Virus record (IMG/VR): IMGVR_UViG_3300045988_021913 | Location: 1 to 43,136 of that record | DNA length: 43,136 nt | Strand: one strand, 5' to 3' | Source: a virus | In this document: positions 3,836-29,349 of the stretch, in pieces | Position numbering within the stretch: position 1 is the stretch's first letter | Layout of the letters: the number at the start of each line of letters is the position of its first letter | Notes under the pieces: model-generated | The model's database searches: none | What the model was told of the DNA's origin: nothing | Seen by the model: only the letters and a program-made list of their open reading frames with translations | Position numbers and translations under genes: made by a program

Positions 3836-4280
3836 GGCGCGCTACCTTTCTCTTGAACCATGCCCACAGGTTACGCCACGGGTGGGCTTCTACGTAATTG
3901 GCGCGCTGCTCGGCGTTGTAGCGTCTGTTACGCATTACATTAAGGGCCTCTTGCTTAAAAGCGCACTCGTCGTTCGCTCGCCCAAGCGCCGCCTCAGTGT
4001 CAGCGAGCTTATTTCGCAGCGCATCCGCGTCTGCTTTCAGGTTCGCAATCTCGTTTGCCTTGTTGATGGCCTTGCCGTTCATCTGGTCAAGACGTTCGGT
4101 CAAAGCGACATTCTTTTGATGCATCGCCGCCTTTAGGTTCGCATATTCGGCAATCAGATCATTCTTCTCATCGATACAATTTTTCAGCTCGATGATCTCT
4201 GCTTCAAGCGCCGCAGTTTTCTCCTTCGCTTCCTCCACCATTTTCGCCATCTGGTCTTTGGTGTACTTCTTTACGTTCAT
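3828..4280 (-). CDS. Hypothetical coiled-coil protein
   Basis: Track ORF trimmed to ATG 4280 (MNVKKYTKDQ..) behind GAGGGGAG. Heptad-like and K/E/A-rich. Confidence 0.6.
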   Translation of the reverse strand: MNVKKYTKDQMAKMVEEAKEKTAALEAEIIELKNCIDEKNDLIAEYANLKAAMHQKNVALTERLDQMNGKAINKANEIANLKADADALRNKLADTEAALGRANDECAFKQEALNVMRNRRYNAEQRANYVEAHPWRNLWAWFKRKVARHE

Positions 4281-4438
4281 TTGCGTTCTCCCCTCATTCC
4301 GATTTGTTCGTATTTTCGGTCGCTTACGATGCTCACGACCTTGCAATCGCCGTATCGCTCGATGTCCATGGCGATGCGCTCCTTGATGCCCTGCGCGTCA
4401 GCGGCGGGGACGTTGGCTTTAATCGTGATCGTCAGCAT
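4277..4438 (-). CDS. Hypothetical small protein (53 aa)
   Basis: Below the track size cut-off. GGAGGG lies 6 nt before ATG 4438 (MLTITIKANVPAADAQGIKERIAMDIERYGDCKVVSIV..). Its TGA overlaps the next ATG (ATGA). Confidence 0.45.
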   Translation of the reverse strand: MLTITIKANVPAADAQGIKERIAMDIERYGDCKVVSIVSDRKYEQIGMRGERK

Positions 4439-4470
4439 GTGCGCCCTCCTTCGGCTCGCCGTAGATGTAC

Positions 4471-4766: not shown

Positions 4767-5030
4767 TCAACGTTCAGTGTTGTCACCTCCGTCCATCTTG
4801 GCCCCGCAGTTGGGGCAGTAATTGAAAGTGTTTGTATCGTTGTCGCAGTAGTTCCACTGTCTCTTGCACCCAGAGCATTCCATTTCGTCAAGGTGTTCCA
4901 CCCACAGCCCATGCACCACCGGCGCAACGTCAGCGGAGGGCATATCCGAGATGGATTGCAAGTTTTTTGCGCTGCACCCGTCCTGCATTAGTTTCATAAG
5001 CGCCGCTTCTCGCTTGATGTATTCAGGCAT
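4767..5030 (-). CDS. Small zinc-ribbon protein, paralog 2
   Basis: ATG 5030 after GGAGGTG. MPEYIKREAAL..ADVAPVVHGLW..C-x2-C..CPNCGAKMDGG. Paralogous to the upstream gene. Confidence 0.65.
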   Translation of the reverse strand: MPEYIKREAALMKLMQDGCSAKNLQSISDMPSADVAPVVHGLWVEHLDEMECSGCKRQWNYCDNDTNTFNYCPNCGAKMDGGDNTER

Positions 5031-5268
5031 TGTCCGCACCTCCGTCCATCTTCGCGCCACAGTTTGGACAAAATGGAGTTTCGTCCCTACACTCTACAAA
5101 GCATTCAGAGCAGTACGGGTTCGATGAACCTTTTATCCACCGCCCATGCACCACCGGCGCAACATCAGCGGCGGGCAGGGCCTCAATATACTGCGACGGC
5201 TCAAGGCCTTTTGCCCACGCGTGCTTTGCGGCCTCAATCGCCGCACTGAGCTTAATGTATTCAGCCAT
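5023..5268 (-). CDS. Small zinc-ribbon protein, paralog 1
   Basis: ATG 5268 (the track starts 2 codons earlier at a TTG). MAEYIKLSAAI..ADVAPVVHGRW..CSEC..CPNCGAKMDGG. Confidence 0.65.
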   Translation of the reverse strand: MAEYIKLSAAIEAAKHAWAKGLEPSQYIEALPAADVAPVVHGRWIKGSSNPYCSECFVECRDETPFCPNCGAKMDGGADNA

Positions 5269-5298
5269 TGTCAATAGACCGCTTCGCGCTTTGATTTG

Positions 5299-5670
5299 CT
5301 AATTTCCATCGTCAGCTCTCCTGTTCCATGCTTCTTTTGCCTTTGGAATCGACCGCCCGGGATCCAGCGGCAAGAGAAAGAGCCTGCCTTCCTTGTCGGC
5401 CTCGGCCAGTTCCCGCAGGCGGTCATAGCTGCAAAAACTTTCCAAATCAGCAAGTCGCATAAGCTTCAGCGCGATCTCGTCCGCCTTATCCTTCGGCAAA
5501 ACCTCCTCCGGCGTCAGCCCCGTGTCCTCGTAGGCTGCAAGACGCTCCACACACGTCTGTCTGTACGCGCTTTTTGCCGCACGGTCATTGCAATCATTGC
5601 CACCGTAGCAATCTGCCGGATAATTGTAATCCGCTGCGCCGCTTGCGAGATATTTTGTCAGTCTCTTCAT
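5299..5670 (-). CDS. Hypothetical protein (123 aa). Its C-terminal ..EAWNRRA motif is reminiscent of Lar-type restriction-alleviation proteins.
   Basis: ATG 5670 overlaps the upstream TGA. Contains LAAYEDTGLTPEEV and KAKEAWNRRADDGN. The functional link is weak and rests on memory only. Confidence 0.55.
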   Translation of the reverse strand: MKRLTKYLASGAADYNYPADCYGGNDCNDRAAKSAYRQTCVERLAAYEDTGLTPEEVLPKDKADEIALKLMRLADLESFCSYDRLRELAEADKEGRLFLLPLDPGRSIPKAKEAWNRRADDGN

Positions 5671-6425
5671 CACTCCACCTCCTGCATCTTACTAATCACT
5701 TTTCGGATCACATCGCCGCCATAAGCGTCTTTTGTCAACTCCAAAAACTCCGCCAGCGTCATTATGCCGTGCTCGAGATCAACACCGTGGTCGCGGGCAA
5801 ACTGTTTTCTGCCCATGTCGCATGAGCCGGTCAAACGGTGATGCCAGTCGTAAAAATACTGTGTCGGATATGCTTTCTCGCGGTCTGTTTCTCGCAGAAA
5901 CGTGTCGATGCGTTCATCTTCCGGCATATCCTTGAAAAGCTTGCCTCGCAGCGCTTCCATTGCTTCGCGCAGCGTTTCGCCGTGTGCGAAAACATTTCCC
6001 TGCTTGACGATATAGCACGGTGTGAGCGTCAAATCGGCGTTCACGATTGCCCCATGCGCGGTGTTGCCGCGCACGGAACGAATCAGCGTATTTACGCCGT
6101 CAATTCGATAGATTGGTTCTCCATTGAAACTTTTAATGCCGTAGCCGTAGCCGGAGCCGTAGCCGTCGCCGGAGCCGTAGCCGTCGCCGTAGCCGTCGCC
6201 GGAGCCGGAGCCGTAGCCGGAGCCGTCGCCGTAGCCGTAGCCGGAGCCGTAGCCGGAGCCGTAGCCGGAGCCGTCGCCGTAGCCGTCGCCGGAGCCGGAG
6301 CCGTAGCCGTCGCCGGAGCCGGAGCCGTAGCCGTCGCCGTAGCCGTAGCCGTAGCCGTCGCCGTAGCCGTAGCCGTAGCCGGAATTTGCCGTCAGGAATG
6401 CTTTGGTCTTCTCCTCAAGCGTCAT
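5670..6425 (-). CDS. Gly/Tyr-repeat protein: an approximately 81-aa (G-Y-G-[DS]) low-complexity tract followed by a conserved-looking globular C-terminal domain
   Basis: Track ORF trimmed to ATG 6425 (AAGGAGTGG RBS, ATGA overlap with the upstream gene). MTLEEKTKAFLTANS-(GYGYGYGDGYGYGYGDGYGSGSGDGYG...)-IKSFNGEPIYRIDGVNTL... Confidence 0.7.
   Translation of the reverse strand: MTLEEKTKAFLTANSGYGYGYGDGYGYGYGDGYGSGSGDGYGSGSGDGYGDGSGYGSGYGSGYGYGDGSGYGSGSGDGYGDGYGSGDGYGSGYGYGIKSFNGEPIYRIDGVNTLIRSVRGNTAHGAIVNADLTLTPCYIVKQGNVFAHGETLREAMEALRGKLFKDMPEDERIDTFLRETDREKAYPTQYFYDWHHRLTGSCDMGRKQFARDHGVDLEHGIMTLAEFLELTKDAYGGDVIRKVISKMQEVE
6138..6380 (-). repeat. Coding tandem repeat (6/12-nt period, gccgtagcc/gccggagcc) that encodes the GY tract
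   Basis: Read directly. There are about 243 nt of near-perfect short-period repeats. Confidence 0.9.
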
Positions 6426-6712
6426 CTCTTCCACTCCTTTACGCCTCGAAGCGACACCGATGCAGCATCCGTGCACGGGATGATCTGGATTGCTCCCAGC
6501 ACGGTCATCCACGGAATCGTCACGGTAAAACGGCAGTTGCCCGGTGTTTTTGTGCCGTCCTGTGCGAGCTGTTCCACAGCGCATGCGCCATCCCAGCTCC
6601 ACAGCTTACGCACATCAGTCATGGTGACTTCGGAGCCGTTTCTCTCCTTGATCTTTCCGAAAAATACGCCTGCGCAGTCGCAGCGAACGATATAGTCCTG
6701 ATTGTTGTTCAT
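6422..6712 (-). CDS. Hypothetical conserved small phage protein (96 aa)
   Basis: AGGAGG lies 10 nt before ATG 6712. Sequence ..IVRCDCAGVFFGKIKERNGSEVTMTDVRKLWSWDGACAVEQLAQDG... Confidence 0.65.
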   Translation of the reverse strand: MNNNQDYIVRCDCAGVFFGKIKERNGSEVTMTDVRKLWSWDGACAVEQLAQDGTKTPGNCRFTVTIPWMTVLGAIQIIPCTDAASVSLRGVKEWKR

Positions 6713-6928: not shown

Positions 6929-8499
6929 TCCTCCCCGAATCTAAGTTTTGTAACGGCAACGGGAAATTCTTCGATCTCGCTTGCCCATCGTGCCGTGCCT
7001 TTGCCGTTGTGCCGCTCAAATACCAGGGGGAACCCGCCGATGCCATCAAACAGGCTGCCCATCGTAACGGGGCGCAAATACTGCGCGCTGATGCGCTTTG
7101 CCAAAAAGTCCCAAAACGGCAGCGCGATCGAGTTGCCGCAGGCCTTATAGCGCGGGCTGTCCGCGCTGTCGCGGAGCTTGCCCTTGCTGTCGCGCCACTC
7201 GCCGATGTCCGTCCAGCCGTCCGGATAGCCTTGCAGCCGCTCGCATTCCATCGGCGTGAGGCGGCGCACGATCATTCCCGTGCGGACAGTGTTTTGCAGA
7301 TTCAAACTCTGCCCGCCGCTCTCTTTGGCTTGCAGTGTTCCGTTGATCTCGCCTCCCTCGGTGAAATTGCGGCAATCAACACTGCTGACCACTAAATCGG
7401 TGCTGTCCTTGTAGTCCCGCTGCTTGCAGCTGCTCGCAACATTGCCCTCGCGATAATCACCGAAGCCCTGCATTTGATAGCAAACCGCCGGGACCTCGCC
7501 GAAGGTGTGCAGTGCAGGACACGGCTTGTCCAGTCCGACGGTGCTGCGGTTATTCGGCGATGTGATCTGCGCGCGATCAAATATCAAAACAGACGGACGT
7601 TGATTCGGCCCGTTTGATACCGCGCTCAGCGTCGGCGCGCATTCCTCGGCGTAGCCGATGCCGTTCGCCTTTGCACCCTGCCCCGCCTTAAAGGCCGCGC
7701 AGATCACCGGCTGATTGTTCCCGCTCATGCCGGCCGCAGCGGTCAGCGTAGGTGCTCTGTCGTCTGTGCGAATCTCTGCACCGCCCTGCTGCGTCGCCAT
7801 GCAGATCACTCCGCACGATGCTTGCCCCCTGCTGCTGCCGGCCGAAATGCACATTGCCTTTTCTTTGCTTGTAATCGGGTCTTGCGTCAAGTGGACCGAG
7901 ATTGCGCAGCCAGCGCCCGCTCCAAAATTTCCGGCAGCTTCTTCCCCCGCCGCTCCGCGCGGCGCAGGATGCCCTGACGCGCTTTTGCGCTCAAAGAGTA
8001 TTTCCCCTGCGGTGTCTCCTCCAAAATCTGCGACAATCGAGATACGACGGCGACGTTGGGGGACTCCCCAGTGTTGCGCGTCATGCACTCGCCAAGCCAC
8101 GCTCCATCGTCCTCCCACGTCATCGTGGTAGCCCCCCCAGGTGTTCCAGCCTTTTTCAGGCACTTCAATATCGGGGGCTTCCGGCTCTGCGATGCGGATG
8201 ATCTCTTCAAGGACTGCCGCGAAGTCTCGCCCTTTGTTGCTTGAGAATGCTCCGGGCACGTTTTCCCAGACCATAAACCGAGGTCTGACCATGTCACCTG
8301 TCCGTCCGTTCGATCTGTCATGTTCTCTCATCTCCTTTACGATGCGAACCTGTTCCATGAACAATCCGCTCCTTGCACCGGCCAATCCGGCGCGTTTCCC
8401 TGCAATGCTCAAATCCTGGCACGGGGAGCCGCCCGTGATAACGTCCACGGCCTCGATCTCCGCGCCATTGATTTTCGTAATATCGCCGAGGTGCTTCAT
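6925..8499 (-). CDS. DNA (cytosine-5) methyltransferase with circularly permuted motif order (IV-VI-VIII-TRD-IX/X-I)
   Basis: Track ORF trimmed to ATG 8499 (MKHLGDITKING.., ATGA overlap with the upstream HTH gene, GAGGGAAGAGG RBS). GGSPCQ lies at about 8416-8433, ENV at 8257-8265, QRRRR at 8044-8058, RRLTPMECERLQGYP follows, and GNS is at 7129-7137. Motif I/II (MGSLFDGIGGF..WASEIEEF) is at 6928-7062, at the C-terminus. Confidence 0.85.
   Translation of the reverse strand: MKHLGDITKINGAEIEAVDVITGGSPCQDLSIAGKRAGLAGARSGLFMEQVRIVKEMREHDRSNGRTGDMVRPRFMVWENVPGAFSSNKGRDFAAVLEEIIRIAEPEAPDIEVPEKGWNTWGGYHDDVGGRWSVAWRVHDAQHWGVPQRRRRISIVADFGGDTAGEILFERKSASGHPAPRGAAGEEAAGNFGAGAGCAISVHLTQDPITSKEKAMCISAGSSRGQASCGVICMATQQGGAEIRTDDRAPTLTAAAGMSGNNQPVICAAFKAGQGAKANGIGYAEECAPTLSAVSNGPNQRPSVLIFDRAQITSPNNRSTVGLDKPCPALHTFGEVPAVCYQMQGFGDYREGNVASSCKQRDYKDSTDLVVSSVDCRNFTEGGEINGTLQAKESGGQSLNLQNTVRTGMIVRRLTPMECERLQGYPDGWTDIGEWRDSKGKLRDSADSPRYKACGNSIALPFWDFLAKRISAQYLRPVTMGSLFDGIGGFPLVFERHNGKGTARWASEIEEFPVAVTKLRFGEE
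7887..8321 (-). CDS. 144-codon alternative-frame ORF embedded in the methyltransferase catalytic core (possible overprinted gene, or a frame artefact)
   Basis: ATG 8321, 10 nt after AAGGAG. The product ends ..GESPNVAVVSRLSQILEETPQGKYSLSAKARQGILRRAERRGKKLPEILERALAAQSRST, which is helical and protein-like. See findings. Confidence 0.3.
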   Translation of the reverse strand: MTDRTDGQVTWSDLGLWSGKTCPEHSQATKGETSRQSLKRSSASQSRKPPILKCLKKAGTPGGATTMTWEDDGAWLGECMTRNTGESPNVAVVSRLSQILEETPQGKYSLSAKARQGILRRAERRGKKLPEILERALAAQSRST

Positions 8500-9820: not shown

Positions 9821-10637
9821 TGCTTCCCTCCAACACCGACTTGACGTACCGCAGGCGCTTATTCGCCTTTTCGCGTCGCAGATTGTCGCCCTTGAACACC
9901 AGTGGCGTACACATCTCGATCACGCGGTCATAAATGCGCTGATAGTCCATGTTTTTCGGCTTGCACAGCTCGTCCAGAGTCAAGTTCGTGGTGACGATCA
10001 GCGGCTTTTTTGCCTTATAGCGCTCGTCAATGACCGTGTATACCGTCTCCATTGCGTACTCGCTGCTGCGCTCTGCGCCAAGATCGTCAATTACCAACAG
10101 CGGGTAGTACCTCACCTGCTTGATGATCTCCTGCTTGTCGTATCCCGCGTTGAGGATTCGCGGGAAGCTCGTAATCATCGCCGGAATTCCGCGATCGATC
10201 AGCTCGTTAGCGATGCACGCCGCCGCGAAAGTCTTGCCGTTGCCGGTGTTCCCCCACAGCAGAAGCCCATTGTTCTCGCGCCGCATATCGTCCCACGCGT
10301 CGGCATAGCGCTTGCATTTGACGATCTCGTCACTCATCGTTGCCGTGCCGAATCGGCACGCCGTCAGGCTCTTGTCGCGGATTCCGTCAGCACGCAGCGT
10401 TTCGATGCGCAAGCGCTTCTCGCGGTCAGCGCGAGCTTTTTTCTCAGCCTCGTACTCTCGCGCCGCACAAGCACACTGACACCCGACAAGGCGGACGCCC
10501 CCGCCGATGGGGATGCGGCACTGCTTCGGCGTGTTGCAATGGCCGCAGTACAGCAGCCCGTCTTTCTCGTAGTCGACCAGATCGCGCACAGGCTCGGCCT
10601 TTTCCGCGATGCTGTCAATCAATGCGTCAACGTTCAT
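9810..10637 (-). CDS. DnaC/IstB-like AAA+ helicase loader
   Basis: Walker A LLLWGNTGNGKTFAA and Walker B LLVIDDLGAE. ATGA overlap with the upstream gene. Confidence 0.85.
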   Translation of the reverse strand: MNVDALIDSIAEKAEPVRDLVDYEKDGLLYCGHCNTPKQCRIPIGGGVRLVGCQCACAAREYEAEKKARADREKRLRIETLRADGIRDKSLTACRFGTATMSDEIVKCKRYADAWDDMRRENNGLLLWGNTGNGKTFAAACIANELIDRGIPAMITSFPRILNAGYDKQEIIKQVRYYPLLVIDDLGAERSSEYAMETVYTVIDERYKAKKPLIVTTNLTLDELCKPKNMDYQRIYDRVIEMCTPLVFKGDNLRREKANKRLRYVKSVLEGSNGH

Positions 10638-11287
10638 AGGCTTCCCTCCGTGTTGCCGTAGTCGTAGTGATACCCTCTGCCGCTCTCGGGTAGCTCATCG
10701 TCCCACCGGCCTTGATTCAGCCATGTAGCGGGGTGTGGAATAAACTGCCCGTTGTTCTGCGTCCATTGGTCGCTGCACTTCTGCCGCTCCACTGCGGTCA
10801 CAAGTGTTTCGAGTGGTACTTTGACCCGCTCGAAAGCTCTCTTAGCAGACTGTTTCCCGATTTTTCGCGGGTAAACTGACCAAAAACGCTCGAATGCGTC
10901 CCCCGTAGAGGGGGATTTAGAGGGTATATCGTCTTCTGTCTTATGTTCTTCGTCTTCTGTCTTATGTCTTATGTTATTAGTAGGCTTGCATTTGCTTACA
11001 TTTGCTTGCATTTGCTTGCATTTGCTTACATTTGCTTTTGACGCTCTGCCGCCAGCCGCTCCATTTTGAGCCAGCGTACCGGATTTTTGAGCGTCACGGT
11101 CGACGACCGCCTTGAATACCGGAAATAAAAGGGACTCTCTCCCAAGGGTATCAGGAATTTCACCAGACCTGGCATATTCTAAAATCGCAACAAACAGACG
11201 GCCTTTTTCGTCATCTTCCAGTGCTGCTGTTTGCTCGATCCAGTCGTAATATGCCTTTACATAGCACCTTGTCGATGCAGCTCCCAT
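10634..11287 (-). CDS. Replisome organiser / replication initiator-like protein
   Basis: C-terminal FERFWSVYPRKIGKQSAKRAFERV...FIPHPATWLNQGRWDDE is typical of phage replication-organiser proteins. It carries internal DNA iterons. Confidence 0.7.
   Translation of the reverse strand: MGAASTRCYVKAYYDWIEQTAALEDDEKGRLFVAILEYARSGEIPDTLGRESLLFPVFKAVVDRDAQKSGTLAQNGAAGGRASKANVSKCKQMQANVSKCKPTNNIRHKTEDEEHKTEDDIPSKSPSTGDAFERFWSVYPRKIGKQSAKRAFERVKVPLETLVTAVERQKCSDQWTQNNGQFIPHPATWLNQGRWDDELPESGRGYHYDYGNTEGSL
10930..11038. repeat. Iteron cluster inside the organiser gene. There are two copies of cgtcttctgtcttatgt (10930, 10951), followed by 5 tandem 10-nt units gcttRcattt (10984-11038).
   Basis: Read directly. 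The repeats are mirrored in the protein as HKTEDE/HKTEDD and ANVSKCK x2. Confidence 0.85.
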
Positions 11288-14288: not shown

Positions 14289-14431
14289 CCCCTGTCGATA
14301 AACGGCAGCAGCTCATACAGCACCTTGCACACCGCACACGCGCCGATGACGGCAAGGGAGGTTGCAAAGTCGCAGCTGTTGAGCGCGATCACCGCAGCGG
14401 CAATGCCGCCGAAAAACAGCGTGTCAATCAT
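14276..14431 (-). CDS. Small membrane protein (51 aa)
   Basis: Below the track cut-off. ATGA overlap with the upstream gene. MIDTLFFGGIAAAVIALNSCDFATSLAVIGACAVCKVL... Confidence 0.4.
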   Translation of the reverse strand: MIDTLFFGGIAAAVIALNSCDFATSLAVIGACAVCKVLYELLPFIDRGCRK

Positions 14432-14673
14432 TTCGTGCCTCCGATCAGCATGAGCTTTTCCGCGTCGGTGAATTGCAAAACTCGGTCAAGCTCCCAAATT
14501 TCCTCTAACGTCCAGCGGGAACGCCCCGCCATGCGGTTACAGATTTGCGTTTCTGACAAGCCGATTTCCTCGCCCAGCTCCTTGCCGGTGCGAATCAATG
14601 CTCGTCCCATCGCGCCGCGCACTGCTCGCTCAAGGTCATTTCGCCGTCGCGTTAACTGTTGTGGCTTTAGCAT
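14428..14673 (-). CDS. Small HTH DNA-binding protein
   Basis: Track ORF trimmed to ATG 14673 (AAGGAAAAGG RBS). Sequence ..ELGEEIGLSETQICNRMAGRSRWTLEEIWEL... Confidence 0.6.
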   Translation of the reverse strand: MLKPQQLTRRRNDLERAVRGAMGRALIRTGKELGEEIGLSETQICNRMAGRSRWTLEEIWELDRVLQFTDAEKLMLIGGTK

Positions 14674-14744
14674 CTTGCCTTTTCCTTTCTCTCGTGCTAC
14701 AATAAGCACGGACACAATATCTTGTGGTGAGATTTGTCCCACCC

Positions 14745-14776
14745 GCCCCGCTCGATGCTGCAGCATTGGGCGGGGC
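14745..14776. other. Compound inverted repeat (gccccgc..atgctgcagcat..gcggggc) at the promoter-distal edge of the repeat array
   Basis: Read directly. The 7-bp outer arms enclose a 12-nt perfect palindrome. Confidence 0.6.
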
Positions 14777-14779
14777 ATT

Positions 14780-15347
14780 TTAAAGGCCTTGCGCTTCGAA
14801 TCGGTGCCATTCCATAGCAGATCGGTTCTGTTCGCCGCGTCTCTATTCCGCCGCGCATCTCCGCAGTTCTGTTCCTCCGCGTTGCGTTGACTTGCTTAGC
14901 AGTTCACGTCCATTCAACTCCCATGCATCTCATCGCTCCTCAACCCCACTGCGCATCTCCGCTAATCGTCTCATTGCCCTCGCTCTCGCTACTCTGTGCA
15001 AAGCGGTTCAGTGCCGTTGCATCTCAAGGCCATACCGTAGCATCTCTAAGCGATTCCGCAGCGCATCACTGCTAAGCAGTTCCTTCGCTCTGCTCGGCGA
15101 ATCATTGCCCTTCCTGGCTTTTCCCTTGCTCTGCCCATCTGTTCGCCGCCGTTCCGTTGCTCGGCAACGATGTTCACGGCGAAGCCATTCCGGTGCATCT
15201 CTTCGCTGAACTATTCCTCTGCATCTCTCTGCGTTTCTATTCCATTGCGTTGCCTTCCAATGCTGTGCTGCGCTTCGCATTGCGAAGCGATTCCTTTGCT
15301 ACGCCATCGCAACGCTGGGCAAGGCTTGTCGATGCTACTCCATCGCG
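14780..15347 (-). repeat. ORF-free, strand-asymmetric array of about 13 degenerate direct repeats (minus-strand consensus GAGATGC-N3-7-GGAATRG). Candidate ncRNA or protein-binding array.
   Basis: GCATC[TA] occurs on the + strand at 14855, 14925, 14953, 15019, 15040, 15063, 15195 and 15221, with a degenerate copy at 15135. ATTCC-type partner elements accompany them. Longer sub-repeats and three palindromes are present. There are stops in all six frames. The + strand is about 70% pyrimidine (18 purines per 60 nt, counted in two lines). Confidence 0.75.
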
Positions 15348-15941
15348 TTACTCGATTTCCTCCCAGCGGAATCTGCCTTTTCCACTGTTGCGCCACTGGC
15401 CGATGCCGGAGAATCTGCCGTAGTCCAACCAGTCGCGCACAACGTCGATATGCTCATCACACAGACACACAACCGTAAACTCGCACGTTGCCCCGGCGGG
15501 GATTTCCTCGCTCATGGCAAGGCTGACACGCTCGCCCTGCGCCGTCTGCGCTCTCAGCGGGCGCTGGCACTCCTTGATCTCGCCGTCAAAGAGAATTGGA
15601 ATGGTGCGCGGCTCGGGGAAAATCAGTTTGTCGATTTCCTTCTTGTAAGCCTTGATTTTGCTGCTGGACGAATCCTTGACCTTGCGCAGACCGCCGCAGG
15701 TGTCCTTGAAAAAGCCCTTGATCTGGTAGTCGTACAAAAACGGCGTGCCATCGTCCAGACGAGGAAAAATGGTCATGGACTTTTCGGCTACCGCGTCAGC
15801 GCCGAGCGCTGCCACCTCGTCCTCCACGCTCGCCGCATCCGGTGCGTGGCTGCCGATAAACTCGCGGTAGATATCGGGGTTCGCGGGGCTGGTGCCGAGA
15901 ACCGGCTCAATAAACGTGAGCTTAACTTTGAGTTCCTTCAT
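15348..15941 (-). CDS. Cas7/Csm3-like RAMP-fold protein candidate (197 aa, otherwise uncharacterised)
   Basis: AGGAGG RBS. The motifs KVKLTFIEPVLGTSP, TPFLYDYQIKGFFKD, RPLRAQTAQGERVSLAMSEEIPAGATCEFTVV and DYGRFSGIGQWRNSGKGRFRW appear in the order and spacing of RAMP hallmarks. Confidence 0.45.
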   Translation of the reverse strand: MKELKVKLTFIEPVLGTSPANPDIYREFIGSHAPDAASVEDEVAALGADAVAEKSMTIFPRLDDGTPFLYDYQIKGFFKDTCGGLRKVKDSSSSKIKAYKKEIDKLIFPEPRTIPILFDGEIKECQRPLRAQTAQGERVSLAMSEEIPAGATCEFTVVCLCDEHIDVVRDWLDYGRFSGIGQWRNSGKGRFRWEEIE

Positions 15942-15964: not shown

Positions 15965-16168
15965 TTAGTTCTCTTCGCTGGATTTCAGCAGCACATCTAC
16001 GGTAACGCCGAAGTAGTCGGCGATGGCTTTCACGGTATCAATGCGCGGAGCATTGATACTGCCATTCCACTTCCCAATCGCGCCATTTGCGATGCCGCAC
16101 GCTCTCTCAAGCGCCCAAATGCTGATATTTCGCTCATCGCAAAGGCGCTTGACGTTCTCATAAATCAC
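15965..16168 (-). CDS. Cro-like XRE HTH repressor
   Basis: GTG 16168 lies 7 nt after AAAGGAGG. (M)IYENVKRLCDERNISIWALERACGIANGAIGKW... Divergent from the CI-like gene. Confidence 0.75.
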   Translation of the reverse strand: MIYENVKRLCDERNISIWALERACGIANGAIGKWNGSINAPRIDTVKAIADYFGVTVDVLLKSSEEN

Positions 16169-16190
16169 TCTCGATCCTCCTTTCACACTC

Positions 16191-16217
16191 ATTCGCATTG
16201 TCAAGGGCAATGCGAAT
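16191..16217. promoter_or_regulatory. Operator candidate: perfect 10-bp inverted repeat ATTCGCATTG-N7-CAATGCGAAT
   Basis: Read directly. It sits just upstream of the cro-like RBS. Confidence 0.6.
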
Positions 16218-16264: not shown

Positions 16265-16294
16265 TTGACAAGAAGATAGAAAACGCGCTATTAT
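16265..16294 (+). promoter_or_regulatory. Sigma-70-type promoter (TTGACA, 18 nt, TATTAT) facing the CI-like gene
   Basis: Read directly. Confidence 0.5.
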
Positions 16295-16372: not shown

Positions 16373-16401
16373 ATTATAGTAGAAAACCCGCTACTTGTCA
16401 A
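16373..16401 (-). promoter_or_regulatory. Consensus promoter on the minus strand (TTGACA, 17 nt, TATAAT) driving the cro-like/early operon
   Basis: Reverse complement of 16396-16401 is TTGACA. Reverse complement of 16373-16378 is TATAAT. Confidence 0.65.
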
Positions 16402-16435
16402 TAGCTAATTCGCTACAAAAGAAATATTTTTGCCT

Positions 16436-16792
16436 ATGAATACACGTAATAAAATCATTGTCCAAAACATAAGAAGCTTTGCGCAAATACGCGGGACCTC
16501 GATCAAGCAAATAGAGAAAGACCTTGACCTTGGGAATGGAATGATTGGTAAGTGGGAAGATTCCAAAAAAAGTCCGCCGTTTGAAACCATTGAAGTAATT
16601 GCAAATTACTTGGGGGCGTCTATTCTTGAGCTGGCGGGAATAACGCCGAGCGAGAACGAAAAAGCCCCCGCCACAGAGGGCGAGGGCTTAAGCGCAGCAA
16701 AGAAAGCGCTATTGGTAGCTATTGATGATTTGTCCGACGCTCAGTGTGAAAAGCTCCTTCCGATTGTATTGAGCGCAAAACAAGTACTATGA
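16436..16792 (+). CDS. CI-like XRE HTH repressor (no peptidase domain)
   Basis: ATG 16436. Sequence ..IRSFAQIRGTSIKQIEKDLDLGNGMIGKWE... No obvious SD, so it may be leaderless-like. Confidence 0.75.
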   Translation: MNTRNKIIVQNIRSFAQIRGTSIKQIEKDLDLGNGMIGKWEDSKKSPPFETIEVIANYLGASILELAGITPSENEKAPATEGEGLSAAKKALLVAIDDLSDAQCEKLLPIVLSAKQVL

Positions 16793-27693: not shown

Positions 27694-29349
27694 TTATTGA
27701 AAGTACCAGTTGATAGCGTAGTTCTCGGTGGGCGTGGTCTCAACGTTCACCAGCGTCTGCTTGACGATGTTGCCGGATGCGATGTAGTCGCTGCCGCGCG
27801 TCGCTGCCACGATGCCGCCGCTTCCGTTGCCCTTGAGGAGGGAGGTGGTGCTCGGTGCGCTGGCAATCGTCACCGCGCCCGTCTTGCCGTTGACGCTCGT
27901 CACGGGGTAAGGCGGCGGGTTTTCGAGGGAATACTGCCGCTCGTTTGCAACGTTGGAAAGACCAACGTCACTTTTGCTGACGCTCTGCAATGCACTGTCT
28001 GCCTTGCCGAGGGACGTTTGCACGTCCTGCGCAAGGTCGCTCTTAGCAACCGTAGACTTAAAGGCCAGCGCGCCCAAATCGCCAAACCACTTGGCGATTT
28101 TGCCAAACAGCACGGAGAGCTTTTCCCCCGTCGCGATGTTTGCGCGCGTGGTCGCTGCCGTAAAAGCCGCCGTGACGTTACTGCCGTTGCCGGTCTTGTC
28201 CAGCTTACTGGAAATGTCCTGATGCTGTGTCAGATAGCCGCTGTCGTTGGTGAGTTGAGAGGTCTTTGTGGGGATTTCGGCGCGAATGTCGGGGTGCGCT
28301 GTCGTGCTCTCATTGTGAGCTTTGATTTGCGCGGATACGTCCGGCGTAGGGATTTTACCAATAGCGTCATCAACGTACTTGTAGATGTCCGTACGCTTGC
28401 CCCGCGGGTCGTAGATGCTTGCGAGCATATCGCCAGCGCCTTGACCGTTCGCACCGTTATAGACCTCGAAGTCGAACGTCGTGCCGTCTGTCAGGGTGAT
28501 GGTGTACACGTCGCTCGTGCCGGGAGCGTGGTTGCCGCTCTTGAGAGCGATGCCGGAAATGCCGTTACCGGTTGCACCCTTCGGGCCGGGAGCGCCAGTG
28601 CCGCCGCGCGGCAAGCCAAAGACCAGCTTGTAAACATTGTCCACGAGGGATTTGCTCACCGTCGCAGGCTTGCCCGTCTCAAGCGTCACCGCCTCGACGA
28701 TCATGTTGACGATGGCGTCGCGCGCCGCCTGCGCGTCGGTCTTTGCGGTCTCCGCCGCAGACTTGGCAGATGCCGCGTCTTCGGCGCTCTGAGCGGCCTG
28801 TGTGGCTTTCTGCCCCGCAGCGGTCGAACTACCCGCCGCAGCGTCTTTTGCGCTCTCTGCGGCTTTCTGTGCCGATTCCGCCGCCGTCTTAGCGGTCTGT
28901 GCGCCGGTCTGCGCACTCTCCGCCACTTTCTGCGCATTGGCGGCGGCGGTCTGTGCATCCTTTGCCGCCGTCTCCGACTTTGCCGCATTGGTTGCCGCCG
29001 TCTGCGCGGCCTGCACCTTCTCGTCAACGCCGGTCGCAGATGCAGCAGCAGCAGCCGCAGAAGATGCCGCCGCTTTTGCGGAAGTGTCAGCCGCCGCAAC
29101 CTTGTCGTCGATGCCCTGCGCTGCGGTCTCTGCTCTGGCTGCGTCCTTTGCCGCCGCGTCAGCCGATGCCTTGGCGCTGTCAGCATACTCCTTAACGCCC
29201 TGCACCTCCGCCGCAACAGCGTCCTTCGCATACTGCACGACCTGCGAACCTTTCAGCTTCTTCGCCTCGCCGCCCTGCTCAAGCACAAAAAGGTCTTCGC
29301 CCGTGATCTGTAATGCTTGCGTGAGGTCGGAAATTGTTTTATCAGCCAT
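27694..29349 (-). CDS. Tail fibre protein with a long Ala/Lys/Glu/Thr-rich coiled-coil stalk
   Basis: About 190 aa of A-rich repeats (..AKASADAAAKDAARAETAAQ..), a short collagen-like GGTGAPGPKGATGNG, and a C-terminal globular part. Confidence 0.75.
   Translation of the reverse strand: MADKTISDLTQALQITGEDLFVLEQGGEAKKLKGSQVVQYAKDAVAAEVQGVKEYADSAKASADAAAKDAARAETAAQGIDDKVAAADTSAKAAASSAAAAAASATGVDEKVQAAQTAATNAAKSETAAKDAQTAAANAQKVAESAQTGAQTAKTAAESAQKAAESAKDAAAGSSTAAGQKATQAAQSAEDAASAKSAAETAKTDAQAARDAIVNMIVEAVTLETGKPATVSKSLVDNVYKLVFGLPRGGTGAPGPKGATGNGISGIALKSGNHAPGTSDVYTITLTDGTTFDFEVYNGANGQGAGDMLASIYDPRGKRTDIYKYVDDAIGKIPTPDVSAQIKAHNESTTAHPDIRAEIPTKTSQLTNDSGYLTQHQDISSKLDKTGNGSNVTAAFTAATTRANIATGEKLSVLFGKIAKWFGDLGALAFKSTVAKSDLAQDVQTSLGKADSALQSVSKSDVGLSNVANERQYSLENPPPYPVTSVNGKTGAVTIASAPSTTSLLKGNGSGGIVAATRGSDYIASGNIVKQTLVNVETTPTENYAINWYFQ

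Follow-up and report, generated by a model that had tools for sequence, protein, structure and literature searches.

A Probable Vipr-Type RAMP Gene and Its Adjoining Pentanucleotide Array in a Clade of Gut-Clostridia Phages

The gene we investigated encodes a 197-aa protein and is found in IMG/VR virus record IMGVR_UViG_3300045988_021913, of which positions 1 to 43,136 were analyzed (this whole stretch of 43,136 nt is called the window below). It occupies positions 15348-15941 on the minus strand, its product starts with MKELKVKL, and this report concerns that product, for which we argue membership in the RAMP superfamily, together with the periodic non-coding array that adjoins the gene. An AGGAGG motif lies 9 nt 5' of the ATG, and 23 nt separate the start of the gene from the stop codon of its upstream neighbor. 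The latter is a cro-like gene (15965-16210, minus strand), the first of the early operon, which encodes an 81-aa helix-turn-helix (HTH) regulator of the Cro/C1 type (HTH_26/HTH_3 with E about 1e-6; PHROG 8 with E=1e-15). A predicted early promoter with a perfect sigma-70 consensus, TTGACA-17-TATAAT (12 of 12 positions), is located upstream of the cro-like gene at 16401-16373 on the minus strand, and no terminator-like site was found on this strand from the cro-like gene to the end of the array. The promoter would drive the cro-like gene, the RAMP gene and the array. An earlier note, made from the letters of this DNA, had described the open reading frame (ORF), its ribosome-binding site directly after the cro-like gene, and its place as the second gene of the early operon; the coordinates, the site, the gap and the promoter bear out this description.

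The same note had called the protein a Cas7/Csm3-like RAMP of about 200 aa, recognizable by four motifs in the expected order. Searched as a single sequence, the protein gave no meaningful match in Pfam, NCBIfam, PADLOC or PHROGs, and the only three PDB matches with E<=10 were to one 200-aa Cas7 and two Csm4 proteins (E 0.3-0.5), aligned via the C-terminal segment GIGQWRNSGKGRF. Taken alone, the similarity of the single sequence to RAMPs is only suggestive. A profile of 73 diverse family members (the A1 profile) matched type VII Cas7 with E=3.3e-6, and Csm4 with E=6e-4 and 0.03, via the glycine loop. The AlphaFold model calculated on the 73-member alignment (pLDDT 90.8, pTM 0.84) consists of a single RRM palm with a helical insertion at residues 22-45, a long beta-hairpin at 123-147 that represents the thumb, and the glycine loop, GIGQWRNSGKGRF, at 179-191. 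The best 50 Foldseek matches of this model in the PDB were all type VII Cas7, Csm3 or Cmr4 (E from 2e-8, TM 0.43-0.59), and 168 matches had E<=1e-3; in BFVD, a viral protein with 69% identity carries the automatic name "Cas system-associated RAMP superfamily protein".

The four motifs fall on invariant or near-invariant residues of the family, which in the model are placed at the end of beta-1 (L15-G16), at the start of helix 1 (Y72, G76 and K79), in the thumb hairpin 123-147 (R127, R130, G136, R138, S144 and E145) and in the C-terminal glycine loop (G179, W183, R184, G189 and F191). The profile match and the predicted fold confirm that the protein is a RAMP, with a similarity above chance. 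Across the 73 diverse members there is no invariant Asp, and the only near-invariant acidic residues are E42 and E145; D71 and D173 are near-invariant in a 10-sequence alignment only. The family comprises at least 8,000 clusters at 90% identity and 1,763 clusters at 50% identity, and its members are mostly unnamed, many of them from gut metagenomes, and occur in unrelated phage types. Two members have roughly double the usual length, P0134 (458 aa) and P0201 (432 aa); each has two matched stretches and no Pfam domains, and they may be tandem-duplicated or fused RAMPs. The longer family members that appear as fusions look like gene-calling artefacts.

The array starts right after the stop codon of the RAMP gene and is co-oriented with it. 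This tract of about 560 nt (15347-14790) is non-coding: it contains no credible ORF. Tandem Repeats Finder detects no repeat in it and Rfam no match, because the repeats are too degenerate for either. Its sense strand is purine-rich (A 0.30, G 0.34). Autocorrelation at lag 5 reaches +0.16 in the array region only, not in its flanks, and is about 0 at lag 6; the signal is carried by the sense-strand G, for which the value at lag 5 is 0.46. A cyclic hidden Markov model (HMM) over 57 arrays (27 kb) has one position that is G with a frequency of 0.92, then C (0.53) or A (0.30), then N-N-N, and about 16% of the repeat units are hexamers. The pooled autocorrelation of G has maxima at 5, 10, 15/16, 20/21, 26, 31, 36 and so on to 62. 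The ratios between adjacent lags fit a strict 5-5-5-5-5-6 succession of 31 nt, whereas random insertions do not fit.

When the window array is stacked in rows of 31 nt, clean G columns appear over about 18 rows. We therefore describe the feature at 14790-15347 (minus strand) as a vrRNA-like array, in the terms of the systems discussed below, of about 108 units G-(C/A)-N-N-N in about 18 degenerate 31-nt super-repeats (5+5+5+5+5+6). In a log-odds scan of both strands of the 43-kb window the array scored 60 bits against a background of -35 +/- 14, and it was the only region above 5 bits, apart from one weaker plus-strand stretch inside the same array. Folding of the array RNA gave z=-1.55, which is not significant and indicates neither a stable structure nor a special lack of structure. 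Units starting with GC and with GA tend to alternate along the window array. The hexamer unit is often G-G-A-A-N-(G), so that each 31-nt block has one canonical-looking GG, which could be a mark of register or of processing.

For comparison we used 57 homologous loci from bacterial genomes, whose proteins are 47-88% identical to the window RAMP. An array was counted if it abutted the gene on the sense strand with more than 10 bits, in a scan of 490 kb of related loci. Such an array is present in 51 of 58 loci; the other seven lie at a contig end, have an AT-rich or weak array or, in one case, have an array at a distance of 300 nt. The array always shares the strand of the RAMP gene and mostly lies downstream of it, at times upstream or on both sides; no antisense-only array was found in the 490 kb. 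The arrays form continuous tracts of 180-1160 nt with 36-230 repeats. Four divergent loci (36-43% protein identity), from different phage types, also carry an array, with a 31-nt period that is clear in three of them and weak in the fourth (L060). The repeat RNA that the earlier note had seen beside the gene is a recurrent companion of its homologues and is hardly ever present elsewhere. A scan of IMG/VR with the divergent seed P0262 found nothing.

The phased G has a substitution rate of 3.5%, as against 9-22% at the other phases, and identity between the window and MT835513 amounts to 42% for the array, 92% for the gene and 93.5% for the downstream flank. These comparisons indicate that the phased G is under purifying selection and that the array as a whole turns over fast. 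No other protein family is conserved beside the module across the loci. A few tracts outside the usual arrangement were observed. L037 has dispersed G-phased tracts at 2076-2225, 4226-4450 and 7476-7900 around a gene at 5001-5582, which may be separate vrRNA units as in phage SUSP1 (below); L037 and L042 (tract at 5876-6100) are the only loci with G-phased tracts that do not directly abut the RAMP gene. L016 (2401-2850) and L041 (5201-5600) have very strong lag-5/10 periodicity (about 0.5) away from the RAMP gene, and these stretches are probably unrelated short tandem repeats.

The earlier note knew of no described system with this architecture, a statement that has become outdated. Preprints of the Doudna laboratory from April-June 2026 describe the Viral Interference Programmable Repeat, or VIPR (10.64898/2026.04.26.720920; 10.64898/2026.04.26.720927). 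Vipr is a RAMP encoded by phages, about 20 kDa in size, with an RRM, a glycine loop and a thumb, which was found by structure search and lacks an associated CRISPR array; the vrRNAs are intergenic, flank vipr, and are built from YNNGG pentanucleotide repeats in which GGY is conserved and NN is hypervariable (10.64898/2026.04.26.720920). The vrRNA guides binding to double-stranded DNA (dsDNA) through the NN positions, with one target base skipped, and competing phages are repressed (10.64898/2026.04.26.720920). Seven VIPR types are distinguished, with the repeat variants NNNGG, YNNNG and NNNNG and with varied array architectures, including "staggered" contiguous arrays (10.64898/2026.04.26.720920). 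The survey collected 2,664 Vipr sequences and classified 667 representative systems, from NCBI NR. In the authors' phylogeny the Vipr proteins form a separate early-branching RAMP clade and are not Cas7 proper, and the authors propose that VIPR is older than CRISPR (2026 VIPR preprints).

One Vipr protomer binds each repeat, and the RNA-only filament has six subunits per turn (10.64898/2026.04.26.720927). Type II VIPRs are exemplified by Escherichia phage SUSP1 and a Pseudomonas fulva prophage (10.64898/2026.04.26.720920; 10.64898/2026.04.26.720927). In the SUSP1 Vipr, G2 is contacted by a thumb Arg and the glycine-loop Trp178, Y3 by Arg179, and G1 by His17 and Asp177 (10.64898/2026.04.26.720927). 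We recognized this protein, by H17 and D177-W178-R179, as the 195-aa ORF at 28474-29061 on the minus strand of KT454805. Aligned with hhalign, the A1 family profile matches it over the full length (167 columns) with E=9.6e-6 and a probability of 82.7%, and pairs T17 of the window protein with H17, Q182 with D177, W183 with W178, and R184 with R179. Our periodicity method, applied to SUSP1, recovered the four published vrRNA tracts. The G1 position is G in 74% of the SUSP1 units versus a median of 24% in the window family. The contacts to G2 and Y3 thus appear to be kept, whereas both contacts to G1 are replaced (His17 by Thr, Asp177 by Gln), which fits a repeat with a single G.

We consider it very probable that the ORF at 15348-15941 encodes the Vipr-type RAMP of a VIPR system and that the adjoining non-coding stretch is its vrRNA array. 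A system of this kind is real but has been described since 2026, and the clade of the window adds variant features to it. If the VIPR preprints are followed, an early transcript from the promoter upstream of cro would carry the array, and one protomer would bind each 5-nt repeat. The conserved G and the following C or A would be sequestered by the thumb Arg and by Trp183 and Arg184 of the glycine loop, and the protomers would assemble into a helical ribonucleoprotein filament that displays the variable bases. These bases would pair discontinuously with the dsDNA of a competing phage or prophage, with the skipped target base at codon wobble positions, and the pairing would repress the transcription of the competitor. 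The 31-nt spacing may mark the borders of short six-repeat vrRNAs (the putative "staggered arrays" of the preprint authors), or one turn of the six-subunit RNA-only filament. A model of rings or stacked hexamers was also considered, as was a comparison with RecT, whose subunits each advance 5 nt (PMC9772228); we treat it as an analogy only.

Several observations weigh against the assignment to VIPR. The thumb Arg equivalent to R138 of SUSP1 is ambiguous, with R127, R130 and R138 as invariant candidates, and 30% of the units have A at the second position of the repeat, a purine, which the SUSP1 pocket does not admit. Type II vrRNAs are capped by a conserved structured 3' tail that the array does not have; hairpins at the distal array ends are not significantly enriched across the loci (p=0.09), and no conserved vap accessory gene accompanies the module across loci. 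The mechanism, moreover, is carried over from the type II VIPRs of Proteobacteria phages, which are distant relatives (the hhalign probability is only 83%). Finally, no natural target was found for the window array. In a screen of 0.64 Mb of related prophage loci, no pairing rule exceeded the shuffled controls; the screen covered 0-3 skipped bases for each of six choices of variable positions (four adjacent, two other combinations). In three IMG/VR seed scans the matches did not rise above chance level, with flanks matched at 22-31% in unrelated contigs, and guide matches within the phage's own genome were no better than those of shuffled arrays. The local set of 0.64 Mb is too small to be informative, and the target searches are far too small to count as negative evidence. 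The one indirect sign of targeting is a weak signature: the composition of the dinucleotides equivalent to N4N5 agrees best with codon positions 1-2 of the sense strand (r=0.53).

The fact that the published rule gave no targets would also suit a ribonucleoprotein of the same protein and array with another job or another code. Three variable bases per repeat might be read, very long filaments might act in cis on the phage's own replication and recombination module via R-loops, or RNA might be the target. The module always lies in the early replication and recombination region, the arrays are continuous (180-1160 nt) and tail-less with a 31-nt phase shift that is absent from the preprint text, and a free G1 would leave up to three variable positions per repeat. 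However, a shared binding mode is favored by the homology to the SUSP1 Vipr and by the conservation of the residues that contact G2 and Y3, the preprint already includes variant repeats and "staggered" contiguous arrays, the small target searches carry no weight, and SUSP1-like systems and other inter-phage weapons also sit in early operons. We consider such a different job or code unlikely. Within the VIPR assignment, we tentatively put forward, as possible and not as probable, that the gut-Clostridia phage clade represents a distinct VIPR type, with a one-G code, up to three free bases per repeat, continuous arrays of hundreds of nt, and a strict 31-nt (six-repeat + 1) register. This register would define six-repeat mini-vrRNAs or match one filament turn, and the targeting rule and role could differ from those of type II. 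If the clade is indeed a distinct type, it might use very short or multiplexed guides, for example, or act within the phage's own replication and recombination module.

The periodicity itself allows for an explanation at the level of DNA. With a mean of 5.17 bp, the period amounts to half a helical repeat, 31 bp correspond to three turns at 10.3 bp per turn, and the module is near replication genes; the stretch could be an origin, a set of iterons or a protein-wrapping site, and not RNA, with the RAMP either binding it as DNA or being unrelated to it. Against this, G is in every case the phased base on the gene's sense strand, be the array upstream or downstream, and neither a promoter nor a terminator separates the array from the stop codon, at which it begins. 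Canonical origin-like iterons are found elsewhere, at 10931-11037 in the replication-initiator gene, no AT-rich unwinding element flanks the array, and homologous systems were experimentally shown to use the repeats as RNA (VIPR preprints). A DNA-level element is therefore highly improbable. The more specific idea of the array as a replication or R-loop origin, suggested by its purine skew and by neighbors such as SSB, Rep and primase, was set aside in view of the iterons in the initiator gene, the strict sense orientation and the VIPR literature.

The iterons comprise two sets, GTCTTAT x 6 and GCTTGCATTT x 5.4, within the initiator gene at 10634-11287 (minus strand), and probably represent the phage origin. 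Similarly, the ori of lambda is situated inside gene O.

The surroundings of the RAMP gene are those of a phage. On the minus strand its neighbors encode a Gam-like protein, an exonuclease, NinB, SSB, a replication initiator, a DnaC-like loader and a methyltransferase, and an integrase gene lies on the opposite side of the cI/cro switch. Judged from these genes, the context is a temperate-phage early module. The related loci are prophages or viral contigs. In 15 loci the module adjoins SSB; Rep initiators, primases, Erf, Gam and NinB are further neighbors. The 43-kb window contains neither CRISPR-like repeats nor an Rfam family, and it has no CRISPR array, as had been noted before. No other cas gene was noted in the window, in a profile search of its ORFs that was not exhaustive. 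A small HTH protein, a candidate DNA-binding accessory (vap-like), is encoded 3' of the array at 14428-14778 on the minus strand (PHROG 4583, E=3e-5). Its true start is likely the ATG at 14673, after the ribosome-binding site AAAGGAAAAGG, which would yield about 81 aa.

A lone viral Cas7 homologue in such a place recalls anti-CRISPR mimicry, in which the protein would insert into or cap the type III or type I filaments of the host, or sequester crRNA, like AcrIB3 and AcrIB4. These two are viral Cas homologues that assemble into a defective Cascade (10.1101/2023.06.24.545427). Orphan viral cas genes are documented as anti-CRISPRs, with 358 predicted, including type III homologues (10.1101/2023.06.24.545427); moreover, early expression is expected of the RAMP gene, and the HTH gene that comes after it recalls acr-aca operons. 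However, that HTH gene is not conserved across the family, a homologue being found beside the module in two loci only, and the partner under selection is the phage's own G-phased array and not a component of the host. The period is 5 nt and not the 6 nt of Cas7-crRNA filaments. Anti-CRISPR families are narrow, whereas this family is very large (1,763 clusters at 50%) and spans unrelated phage types, its window member matches no cas family in PADLOC or Pfam, and the neighboring genes serve replication and recombination. We regard anti-CRISPR mimicry as very unlikely. The functions proposed in the earlier note fare accordingly: work with the adjacent repeat RNA is favored, the array being the constant partner of the protein, whereas nothing points to host Cas, as poisoning or capping of type III/I filaments or sequestration of crRNA would demand.

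A protein gene beside tandem-repeat RNA is also the hallmark of type III toxin-antitoxin pairs, in which an endoribonuclease processes a repeat RNA that in turn inhibits it. In ToxIN, near-identical repeats of 34-40 nt lie upstream of the gene for an endoribonuclease of the ToxN fold, with a terminator between them, and the repeat RNA binds the protein. Cas6-group RAMPs are endoribonucleases, and three members of our family have weak matches to Cas6 in Pfam (best E=0.011). However, the units of the array are degenerate, with periods of 5 and 31 nt, and in most cases the array lies downstream and no terminator intervenes; the predicted fold is Cas7-like and not ToxN-like, no His or Asp that might be catalytic is invariant in the family, and the module belongs to a lytic early operon and is not prophage-expressed. 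The probability of a toxin-antitoxin-like pair is negligible.

Three further features of the window were observed. A predicted divergent promoter with a near-perfect sigma-70 consensus, at 16265-16294 on the plus strand, faces the cI-like gene (16430-16792); with the minus-strand promoter at 16373-16401, it gives the overlapping divergent promoters of a textbook lysis-lysogeny switch between the cI-like and cro-like genes. Directly after the array, at 14745-14776 on the minus strand, lies a GC-rich palindrome with a perfect center, GCCCCGCTCGATGCTG / CAGCATTGGGCGGGGC, whose 16-nt arms are 88% complementary and which is also present in MT835513. It may act as an operator, or the transcript may carry it as a 3' cap or tail, and it overlaps the annotated long form of the downstream HTH gene (14428-14778). 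Farther along, GCCGTA is repeated 40.7 times with 84% match at 6138-6381, as part of a wider degenerate repeat (about 6090-6419) inside the minus-strand ORF 5670-6602 (310 aa). The repeat would encode a long dipeptide repeat, the residues of which depend on the frame, and such a low-complexity coding sequence is an unusual feature in the early region of a phage.

VIPR, in which guide RNA directs the recognition of DNA, was reported only recently and in preprints only, and the loci analyzed here extend the logic of a gene plus its array to a very large phage clade of the human and animal gut. They also offer a natural experiment: the G1 contacts and the first G of the repeat are lost together, a parallel that lends support to the published model of the structure. 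The 31-nt super-period provides a directly testable register of processing or of the filament, and the signature obtained from the cyclic HMM and the autocorrelation detects such arrays where tandem-repeat finders and Rfam fail. For annotation, this means that "hypothetical proteins" and "intergenic regions" of gut prophages are to be labelled as VIPR modules.

Among known systems, the Cas7 group (type VII Cas7 8Z4J, 8YHD and 9J9E; Csm3 6XN3, 6IFL and 7UZZ; Cmr4 6S6B) shares the fold of the modelled protein over its whole length (TM 0.55-0.59). The size of about 200 aa, the glycine-rich loop detected by the profile and the thumb hairpin between beta-2 and beta-3 are common to both, and both presumably form head-to-tail oligomers along RNA. 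The window gene differs in its location outside a cas operon, lacks CRISPR repeats and spacers, and has no conserved protein partner such as Cas5, Cas10 or Cas6. The array has an apparent period of 5 nt instead of 6 nt, and the window protein would read a base (G) in each repeat, whereas Cas7 binds the backbone without sequence preference. Furthermore, we saw no invariant acidic residue equivalent to the catalytic Asp of Csm3, which follows beta-1 and serves target-RNA cleavage by Csm3/Cmr4.

The viral anti-CRISPRs include, besides the proteins AcrIB3, AcrIB4 and AcrVIA2, the RNA anti-CRISPRs (Racrs), which mimic host CRISPR repeats (PMC10651486). The window module resembles them as a Cas-related protein or a repeat-like RNA that is encoded by a phage outside a CRISPR locus. 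However, they resemble the Cas components of the host by sequence and act on host complexes, whereas the window protein is paired with a non-CRISPR repeat RNA of its own and shows no detectable likeness to any particular host system. With ToxIN the module shares the arrangement of a protein gene beside a tandem-repeat non-coding RNA, and it differs from ToxIN in the fold, in the length and identity of the repeats, in gene order and in regulation.

The closest counterpart is VIPR itself. The window protein is a RAMP of about 20 kDa with a single RRM, a thumb, a glycine loop and a helical bundle, and the Trp-Arg pair of the glycine loop is conserved. Intergenic pentanucleotide tracts occur on either side of the gene, with conserved G and Y positions and fast change at the others, and the repeats have the YNNNG/NNNNG form and, at about 108 in the window, outnumber the four tandem repeats that a VIPR tract has at the least. 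However, the repeat of the window clade is n-G-(C/A)-N-N instead of G-G-Y-N-N, and the array is one continuous tract, whereas the published type II systems have separate vrRNAs of about 100 nt with 9-16 repeats, each with a pseudoknot tail. The clade also has no conserved vap gene, and its hosts are gut Clostridia (Oscillospiraceae and relatives). To these differences the window clade adds a strict phase shift of 1 nt per six repeats (31 nt), which the preprint text does not mention.

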